This document shows, piece by piece, positions 37,598-38,791 of a DNA stretch of 64,000 nt. Below the pieces are notes generated by a model. The model searched no databases and was not told the origin of the DNA. It saw only the letters and a list, made by a program, of their open reading frames with translations. The stretch is from the NCBI GenBank assembly GCA_047602755.1, contig JBLKOM010000004.1:27305-91304 (forward strand). The letters are read 5' to 3'. The position numbers and the translations under genes are program-made. The stretch is from Candidatus Woesearchaeota archaeon (lineage in GTDB: Archaea > Nanobdellota > Nanobdellia > Woesearchaeales > JACJVV01). The first letter of the stretch is position 1; every line of letters starts with the position of its first letter.

Positions 37598-38791
37598 TTA
37601 TAAAACTTTTTTAAGTTTAAAAAATAATTTTTGCTCTGCTGATTTTTGAATTTGACGAATCCTCTCTCTTGTAATATTAAAAATTTTACCAACCTCTGCT
37701 AAAGTTTTATCTTCACCATCAAAACCATGTCGAAGTTCAAGTATTCTAACCTCTCTATCATCTAGAACTCCAGAATAGAGTAAATCTCGTATTTTCTCAT
37801 GATTATCTAACGTTTCAGAAACCTCAGAAGAATCAACTGAATTATTATCTGCAACAAAATTGATTAATTCAACATCATCATCACCAACTTTCGCATTCAA
37901 TCGACTGACCCTACGCATATTATTATATCTTTGATATTTCTTCAGTACAGACAATGAAACATTTAATCTATTTGCAACATCTTGGTCATCGGCAACTCCA
38001 AATTCTGATTCCAGTTCTGCAACCACACGATTCATCTTTGCTAATTTATCAATCATATGTGTGGGTATTTTATAATCACTATTTCCTGCCAATGCTCTTT
38101 TTATACGTTGTCTAATCCACCATGAAGCGTATGTTGAAAATTTTCCCCTACCTGGTTCAAATCTATCGATTGCAACTCTTAATCCAATATTTCCTTCCTG
38201 ATACAAATCCAGCAAATGAATTCCCCAATTTTTATATGGATTAGCAATTTTAACAACTAAACGCAAATTAGAATTGTATAATTCATCTCTTGCAGCTAAA
38301 TAATTATCACGAGAATAACAATATTCGGCTACAGACTTTGTTAATTTATCTAAATCCATTCCTGTTTTTCTAGCTACTTTTCTAGGAGTTGTTTCCAATA
38401 ATTTTTCAAGGCTATCACCAGCATCAATTACAATTTCAGTTGGTACATCAATTTCATCCAAAACCTCACAAGCCTTTGATTTCCAATAATGAGAATTACC
38501 ATTTGCACTAAGAATTGATTCAGCAATATAAAACAAATTTTCATGTTCTTTATTTAGTCTTTTTACATAAGGTAAATCTGAATTAGATTGTTCTAACAAC
38601 TGATGTAAACAATAACTTGTTGAGAAAACAAATTTTTTAATTAAAAATTTATTTTTTTGAATCACAGATGCTAATTCTTGCTCCCTTTGAATAGTAAGCA
38701 AATCATGTTGAGCTATTTCAGATAAATACCTTGCAATTCCCTTTTCTTGAATATCAGACCCATATACCATAACAATAAGAGTAATTGCCAC
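37598..38791 (-). CDS. bacterial-type RNA polymerase sigma-70 family factor (RpoD-like; regions 1.2, 2, 3, 4)
   Basis: Region 1.2 reads [23 protein letters not shown]. Region 2 reads [12 protein letters not shown]...[42 protein letters not shown]. Region 3 reads [15 protein letters not shown]. Region 4.2 reads [27 protein letters not shown]. The track start is GTG. The ATG at 38770 is more likely, with a TTATAAAT box at 38793-38800. Confidence 0.85.
   Translation of the reverse strand: [397 protein letters not shown]

Follow-up and report, generated by a model that had tools for sequence, protein, structure and literature searches.

The subject of this analysis is a sigma-70-family gene at positions 37598-38770 (minus strand) of a 64,000-nucleotide stretch of contig JBLKOM010000004.1 from a tiny symbiotic archaeon of Candidatus Woesearchaeota (assembly GCA_047602755.1, positions 27,305 to 91,304 of the forward strand); this whole stretch is called the window below. 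Archaeal RNA polymerase initiates transcription with TBP, TFB and TFE and has no known use for a sigma factor. We found that the gene is resident in its archaeal genome, intact, adapted to its host, equipped with a promoter and non-randomly conserved, and we infer that it is expressed and useful. The explanation towards which we lean is that a resident sigma gene of bacterial ancestry has been maintained in Woesearchaeota, where it would act as a domesticated DNA-binding regulator. The steps of this explanation that concern the identity and domestication of the gene are held with high confidence, while the DNA-binding mechanism is a tentative guess that may well be wrong.

An earlier note on this DNA had reported a full-length sigma-70 gene with all of the sigma regions in the open reading frame (ORF) at 37598-38791 on the minus strand. 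This mechanically called frame begins with a GTG and encodes 397 amino acids; translation more probably starts at the ATG at 38770, which yields a protein of 390 amino acids, and the GTG at 38791 overlaps a TATA-like element. The 390-residue form is also found in the protein database (P0001, on a 161,761-bp contig). The gene was indeed intact, and all of the peptide motifs quoted from it were present. Four Pfam models were matched above their gathering cut-offs: Sigma70_r2 (PF04542) with 62.0 bits against a cut-off of 24, Sigma70_r4 (PF04545) with 55.2 against 24.1, Sigma70_r3 (PF04539) with 26.8 against 25.3, and Sigma70_r1_2 (PF00140) with 23.8 against 22. The scores of regions 2 and 4 in this hidden Markov model (HMM) check bear out that the match is more than a generic helix-turn-helix (HTH). 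All four regions were thus present as the note had claimed, but region 1.1 is absent, and only 13 residues precede region 1.2.

On the minus strand, region 1.2 occupies 38648-38731 (residues 14-41) and keeps 8 of its 10 consensus columns. It is followed by an all-helical insertion of approximately 118 amino acids (residues 42-159; 38294-38647), which takes the place of the non-conserved region of primary sigma factors between regions 1.2 and 2.1, and which is lineage-specific, being present in no relative found. Pfam and the alignment then place region 2, with the core-binding helix and the residues for -10 recognition and melting, at 38084-38281, and region 4, with the 4.2 HTH (TRERIRQI), at 37625-37768. 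Between them, at 37823-38047, lies region 3, including the 3.2 linker with an acidic GDDD loop; it is in this region that the protein diverges most. The protein therefore has both of the domains expected of the sigma-70 family, namely domain 2 with its core-binding helix and aromatic -10 melting residues and domain 4 with its 4.2 HTH; of the features of group 1 sigma factors, it has regions 1.2 and 3 and a non-conserved-type insertion, and lacks region 1.1. The top NCBIfam models were of the RpoD type, but all scored under their equivalog cut-offs (NF004208, 209 vs. 555 bits; TIGR02393, 184 vs. 354; TIGR02997, 195 vs. 384.5). The best sequence matches among solved structures were RpoD/SigA primary sigma factors (E = 1.8e-44). 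In addition, the AlphaFold model is all-helical, with a mean predicted local distance difference test (pLDDT) score of 80.7, and its matches in the PDB were exclusively primary sigma-70/SigA chains. These findings establish a 390-aa sigma-70-family protein, which is not a full-length RpoD because region 1.1 is missing.

The protein was compared with 149 diverse sigma representatives, in which 53 alignment columns are conserved in at least 90% of the sequences; residues are given in Escherichia coli numbering, which was verified at known landmark residues. Of the 53 near-invariant columns, 48 are kept, whereas the number lost is 1 for the median sequence and 5 at the 95th percentile. The kept residues include D403, Q406, E407, N409, Y430, W433, W434 and Q437 in domain 2 and R584, E585, R586, R588 and Q589 in domain 4, as well as F427, R441 and H455, and the -10 and -35 recognition residues are retained in canonical form. 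The changes comprise T440K, which is shared with the Verrucomicrobiota group described below, R451K, E458D, K593S and R596Q, the deletion of Y425, and a replaced C-terminal tail beyond L598. A regional score, taken as the fraction of consensus columns matched, was equal to the median of the 149 sequences in region 1.2 (0.80 for both) and lay below it in region 2 (0.70 vs. 0.91), region 3.0/3.1 (0.41 vs. 0.77), region 3.2 (0.55 vs. 0.82) and region 4 (0.77 vs. 0.90). In this pattern, the invariant cores of domains 2 and 4 are strongly constrained, and the constraint on domain 3 is relaxed or shifted.

The archaeal context that the earlier note had described was confirmed by several lines of evidence. 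The GC content (guanine plus cytosine) of the window is 25-33% throughout. The intron-containing tRNA-Glu is real: it carries the anticodon UUC and an intron of approximately 34 nt just after the anticodon (3334-3439, minus strand; Rfam, 45.1 bits), and it was missed by ARAGORN in bacterial mode. A Hel308 gene is present at 11908-13512 (plus strand) as had been reported, but it encodes only the C-terminal two thirds of the helicase (model positions approximately 222-713), and no N-terminal RecA1 half adjoins it. The same split form of approximately 510-575 aa was found in more than 100 matches, of which all of the named ones belong to Woesearchaeota or Nanoarchaeota and the best is 71% identical, so that it looks like a lineage trait of these groups. 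The named relatives of the SppA protein encoded next to the sigma gene are likewise from Woesearchaeota or Nanoarchaeota, save for one metagenome-assembled genome labelled as Acidobacteriota. Of the window ORFs of at least 100 aa that were scanned, none encodes a ribosomal protein, an RNA polymerase subunit or a general transcription factor of either domain. Furthermore, B recognition element (BRE)/TATA boxes stand approximately 30 nt upstream of many start codons in the window; strict TATA octamers (TTTATAWA-like) lie at -42 to -24 in 11 of 56 genes, where their density would predict 2.4%, and their mode is at -28 to -33. Given the tRNA intron, the relatives of Hel308 and SppA and the BRE/TATA boxes, the contig is archaeal and belongs to Woesearchaeota, a lineage of DPANN archaea.

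The sigma gene has a promoter of this host type. The archaeal-style octamer that had been noticed at 38793-38800 (plus-strand coordinates; ATTTATAA when read on the minus strand) was confirmed, and the TATA-box-like octamer TTTATAAG (38792-38799, minus strand) starts at -29 from the sigma ATG, the same position as that of the TATA boxes of other window genes. This host-typical distance implies that the sigma mRNA is probably made by the archaeal machinery, with a very short leader or none. The BRE/TATA promoter TTTTATAAATA of the next gene pair (37595-37605, minus strand) contains the sigma stop codon TAA (37598-37600), and it also supplies the last codons of the sigma gene. This promoter, AAnTTTATAAATA, is found approximately 30 nt before the start codon of the downstream gene in all four genomes compared for it (the window and the related contigs L081, L082 and L083), at a protein identity of 55-63%.

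That downstream pair, which encodes an RDD-family membrane protein and SppA (S49 peptidase; 36075-37574, minus strand), is conserved in Woesearchaeota and served as the synteny anchor. Four related contigs were compared (L081, L082, L083 and L084, with SppA identities of 63, 61, 58 and 55%), and RDD is followed by SppA in all four, with thioredoxin next to this pair or close to it. In L081 and L082, a divergent thioredoxin gene lies 127-170 bp from RDD as its direct neighbour, whereas in the window the sigma gene intervenes between RDD and thioredoxin (39002-39331, plus strand). A sigma gene upstream of RDD-SppA was absent from all four contigs, and neither tblastn nor HMM searches found a remnant at these loci. 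Thus, the sigma gene is a single-gene insertion exactly between thioredoxin and RDD, and its insertion point is fixed within a few bases by comparison with the relatives. The surrounding block is rearranged relative to L081-L083 and to a further related contig, L153, with a segment encoding a giant protein and a U32 peptidase inverted, which places the sigma gene at a synteny breakpoint. The composition of the gene agrees with that of its neighbours: its GC content is 30.5% and that of its third codon positions (GC3) is 15.3%, the corresponding means for the window being 27.5 +/- 3.5% and 13.8 +/- 2.8%, and by codon-usage distance it is the 13th most typical of 56 genes.

These data bear directly on the possibility, raised by the earlier note, that the gene is an assembly chimera or a mis-binned bacterial fragment. 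In favour of this idea, the protein family is otherwise bacterial. Against it, Woesearchaeota genes flank the sigma gene closely on both sides and are mutual neighbours in related contigs, the conserved archaeal promoter of the gene that follows includes the sigma stop codon, and GC content and codon usage match the contig, while the closest bacterial sigma factors come from Verrucomicrobiota of higher GC content and are at most 49% identical. Because both flanks are syntenic, codon usage is host-like, the promoter is of the host type and the stop codon lies within a conserved promoter, a chimera is effectively refuted, and the gene is native to its contig.

The closest relatives of the protein are bacterial and distant. 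An exhaustive, profile-free search of 1.84 billion representative proteins returned 73,746 matches, none of them more than 47% identical and none with the insertion. In a word-indexed protein search, the highest identity was 49%, in an alignment that covers the C-terminal 58% of the sequence. With the protein alone as query, no close relative was found in 185,579 species genomes; with an alignment as query, the scan of these genomes returned, among the matches listed, at least 80 loci (L001-L080) from Verrucomicrobiota and their allies at 39-47% identity. No archaeal sigma factor was present among the matches listed in the protein, genome and metagenome searches, and sigma factors from phage records and viral contigs were at best 35-41% identical over comparable lengths. 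The best matches, at 41-49% over regions 2-4, were the RpoD-like sigma factors of approximately 281 aa of Verrucomicrobiota (P0003 of Terrimicrobiaceae, P0009 and P0098 of Chthoniobacterales, and L001-L080). With these, the window protein shares the signature VVKIA, IKRALA and DK[IL]AKM, of which all three parts occur together in 15 of 148 representatives. However, the Verrucomicrobiota proteins have no insertion between regions 1.2 and 2 and are encoded with higher GC content in bacterial genomes with a bacterial core enzyme, and the window protein differs from them by unique substitutions and by further deletions of one residue each. The distance tree grouped it with other long branches, nearly equidistant (0.56-0.58) from all groups, with a terminal branch of 0.296 against a median of 0.152, which is approximately twofold. 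For this reason, no donor can be named from the tree. The full amelioration and the deep divergence argue for either long residence in low-GC archaea or an unsampled donor.

We also searched metagenome contigs for sigma factors with a polar residue at the position of M413 and found approximately 44 low-GC loci with the motif EGNIGLRR (within L156-L273). They encode proteins of approximately 385-440 aa with a lysine-rich N-terminal tail and region 1.1, and carry an arginine at a clamp-helix contact where almost all other sigma factors have methionine. They were considered as archaeal cousins of the window protein and rejected, being 38-40% identical to it; the motif looks instead like a signature of the primary sigma factors of the candidate phyla radiation.

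The earlier note had left open whether such a gene would be new to the lineage, and it is not. Castelle et al. (2021, Front Microbiol, PMC8204110) described sigma-70 genes (fam00359) in newly reconstructed DPANN genomes, with a particular prevalence in Woesearchaeota; they ruled out mis-binning, detected no anti-sigma factors and regarded the mechanism as unclear, and their DPANN genomes have TBP, TFB and TFE, with no bacterial core polymerase reported. Highly divergent rpoS-like sigma genes have also been described in DPANN viruses and a DPANN prophage (PMC12647753, Nat Commun 2025), and our literature search found nothing on DPANN sigma genes that goes beyond these two papers. The window gene encodes a sigma-70-class protein on a contig that is DPANN by its co-encoded proteins, and it shares with fam00359 the host lineage, the protein family and the puzzle. 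It differs in being absent from the same locus of four related contigs and in that none of 1.84 billion representatives is more than 49% identical to its product, and it may be a separate or fast-evolving acquisition relative to fam00359. The DPANN viral rpoS-like genes are likewise sigma-family genes tied to DPANN; unlike them, the window gene has no viral genes around it. With E. coli sigma-70 and Thermus SigA, it shares regions 1.2, 2, 3 and 4, the insertion after region 1.2, the canonical -10 and -35 reading residues and the best PDB and structural matches, whereas it departs from the bacterial primary sigma factors in lacking region 1.1, in the replaced tail beyond L598, in its score (209 vs. 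555 bits) and in residing in a host without a known bacterial core polymerase. The gene is thus an orphan example of an already published, unexplained phenomenon.

The history that would best fit these observations begins with the acquisition of a bacterial-ancestry gene, with region 1.2, the insertion and domains 2, 3 and 4 and without region 1.1, which would have inserted singly between thioredoxin and RDD-SppA. The gene would then have taken on the composition and codon usage of its host, as well as a TATA box of the host type at -29. These archaea have no known bacterial core polymerase, and the product of the gene is for this reason unlikely to be a classical initiation factor; it could instead be a sequence-specific DNA-binding regulator that acts through the region 4.2 HTH and region 2. 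Removal of region 1.1 relieves the autoinhibition of DNA binding by free sigma factors, and the missing autoinhibitory region 1.1 could thus allow the free protein to bind DNA. Promoter-proximal binding is conceivable because the host TATA consensus, TTTATAAAT (the host box being written as TTTATAAATA), resembles a -10 hexamer. The protein may also touch the clamp of the archaeal polymerase. We counted the intact 390-codon open frame in a genome of 27% GC as evidence of selection.

Several observations weigh against a domesticated regulator. No ortholog was found, the nearest protein being 49% identical. Four relatives are without the gene at the locus, and it is dispensable for the lineage for this reason. 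The holoenzyme-only residues that have been kept, namely those of the 2.2 helix and the acidic 3.2 loop, would not be explained by stand-alone DNA binding. Several substitutions, among them I405Y, M413R, K414V, S506R, F563H and L595E, are absent from all 149 comparison sequences, and the score of region 3.0/3.1 is the lowest of all 150. Sigma-70-type promoter-like sites near the gene were not enriched (108 vs. 122.6 expected), which is weak evidence against a classical role in this genome. By homology with the sigma-32 holoenzyme interface (PMC10216364), M413 and F563 correspond to contacts with the beta-prime clamp helices and the beta flap tip. The idea that M413R marks a loss of bacterial core binding was weakened by the EGNIGLRR sigma factors: arginine is standard at this position in them, and the substitution need not abolish core binding.

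The preserved reading residues, together with the remodelled contact surfaces and domain 3, would also suit a sigma factor that has been re-fitted to archaeal transcription or exported to seize the polymerase of a bacterial partner, a broader view that we regard as unlikely. In its exported form, the archaeon would deliver the protein to a bacterial host or partner, where it would bind the bacterial core and redirect or block transcription. This effector role would account for the retention of residues with a function only in the holoenzyme (D403, Q406, E407, N409 and I410 of the clamp helix, G564 and L598 at the flap, and the acidic 3.2 loop) and for the canonical -10 and -35 reading residues, the interface positions having been derived from sigma-32 (PMC10216364); M413R is normal in approximately 44 EGNIGLRR loci and would be compatible with a bacterial core if these are candidate-phyla-radiation sigma factors, as their sequence features suggest, and bacterial hosts for DPANN have been raised as a possibility (PMC8204110). 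However, no signal peptide was seen by eye at the N terminus, no secretion system lies next to the gene, the known hosts of DPANN are archaea, F563H and L595E fall on or beside the hydrophobic surface that binds the flap, and domain 3 is very degenerate, so that we consider an effector distinctly improbable. In its re-fitted form, the sigma factor would dock on the homologous clamp coiled-coil of the archaeal polymerase and, together with TBP and TFB, direct or modulate initiation from some of the promoters. Both the fold of a sigma factor and the residues that read promoters are indeed kept where the only known polymerase is archaeal (PMC8204110), and the clustering of unusual substitutions on surfaces that contact the polymerase in bacteria could reflect adjustment to a new partner. 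Yet such a subunit is without precedent, sigma-type promoter-like sites are not enriched, and the gene is absent at the locus in close relatives, for which reason it cannot belong to the core apparatus of transcription; we give this possibility little credence.

A domesticated regulator must also be set against two further explanations. It might be a functionless passenger, brought in by lateral transfer and intact only because too little time has elapsed. Its absence from the same locus of four relatives, the lack of an ortholog, the long terminal branch (0.296 vs. a median of 0.152), a domain 3 that is the most degenerate of 150 sequences and the absence of a partner core enzyme or anti-sigma factor nearby all agree with this. 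But host-like composition and codon usage, with the nearest bacterial sigma factors at most 49% identical, argue for long residence; 48 of 53 near-invariant positions have been spared, neutral evolution at 27% GC would probably not have left a frame of 1.17 kb open, and a host-type promoter is present. We therefore judge a passenger to be rather unlikely. The remaining idea is that a virus, a mobile element or a defence system has integrated here with the gene as its cargo, for example as the MzaA-like sigma factor of the MZA anti-phage system. Insertion as a single gene at a synteny breakpoint would be expected of cargo, MzaA models were matched with 196 bits (NCBIfam) and 110.6 bits (PADLOC), and rpoS-like genes are known from DPANN viruses and a prophage (PMC12647753). 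The MzaA score falls far below the cut-off of 800 bits and does not exceed the generic RpoD score, none of the 9 neighbouring proteins matched any defence model in PADLOC, Pfam scans of the neighbouring genes showed no integrase, capsid or repeat boundary, and sigma factors of phages and viral contigs are only 35-41% identical over comparable lengths. An identity with MzaA was rejected on the first two of these grounds, and cargo in general appears highly improbable.

Other features of the window were recorded beside the sigma locus. In the block at 24277-34761 (minus strand), the giant protein of the inverted segment (2349 aa) looks secreted, has fn3, glucodextranase-B and purple-acid-phosphatase-N matches, and adjoins the U32 peptidase; the pairing is kept in L081-L084 and L153, but the orientation of the block in the window is opposite to that in L081-L083. 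A 680-aa protein (32719-34761, minus strand) begins with MFKKKRGQISIFLMVGIVLLLILV, which, from its sequence only, resembles an archaeal class III (type IV pilin-like) signal peptide. The presence of p680, CBS, p181, p496 and the DOT1-like p231 varies among the relatives, and the region is therefore prone to rearrangement. Two convergent genes at 41436-42131 (plus strand) and 42147-42821 (minus strand) both have weak matches to DOT1-like/class I methyltransferases; the second is conserved in L081-L083, where tblastn found no match to the first, although the counterpart of the second in L083 carries a faint DOT1 call. The RibL-like gene of the earlier note is compatible with a cytidylyltransferase-like match at 23121-23534. 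Between approximately 53000 and 59000, GC content drops to approximately 20% over a glycosyltransferase, PMT_2 and polysaccharide-synthesis cluster, which resembles a surface-glycan island with a different history or constraint. Genes of typically bacterial or mobile type include an erythromycin-esterase family gene (44590-45852, plus strand; 280 bits), a PIN-domain gene (49771-50169, plus strand) and a gene for an ORF6N (KilA-N-like) protein with a weak PLD-like part (50846-51706, minus strand), and they fit the heavy bacterial gene input described for DPANN. L153, a 55.6-kb JGI contig and one of the two closest by Hel308 (71%), has a weak Rep_1/REP_ORF2-G2P match at 1-414, approximately 2 kb from one contig end.

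Since the phenomenon was published in 2021, the value of the window gene is that of a well-characterised example and not of a discovery. What is added here is the precise insertion site, the overlap with a promoter, the amelioration and a residue-level map of conservation. The locus is a clean test case, with a defined insertion point, an identifiable promoter and a protein small enough to express. A host-adapted, constrained and intact sigma gene in an archaeon raises the question of how the transcription systems of the two domains mix, and if a re-fitted or exported sigma factor proved true, it would be the first functional bridge between sigma-dependent and TBP/TFB-dependent initiation.

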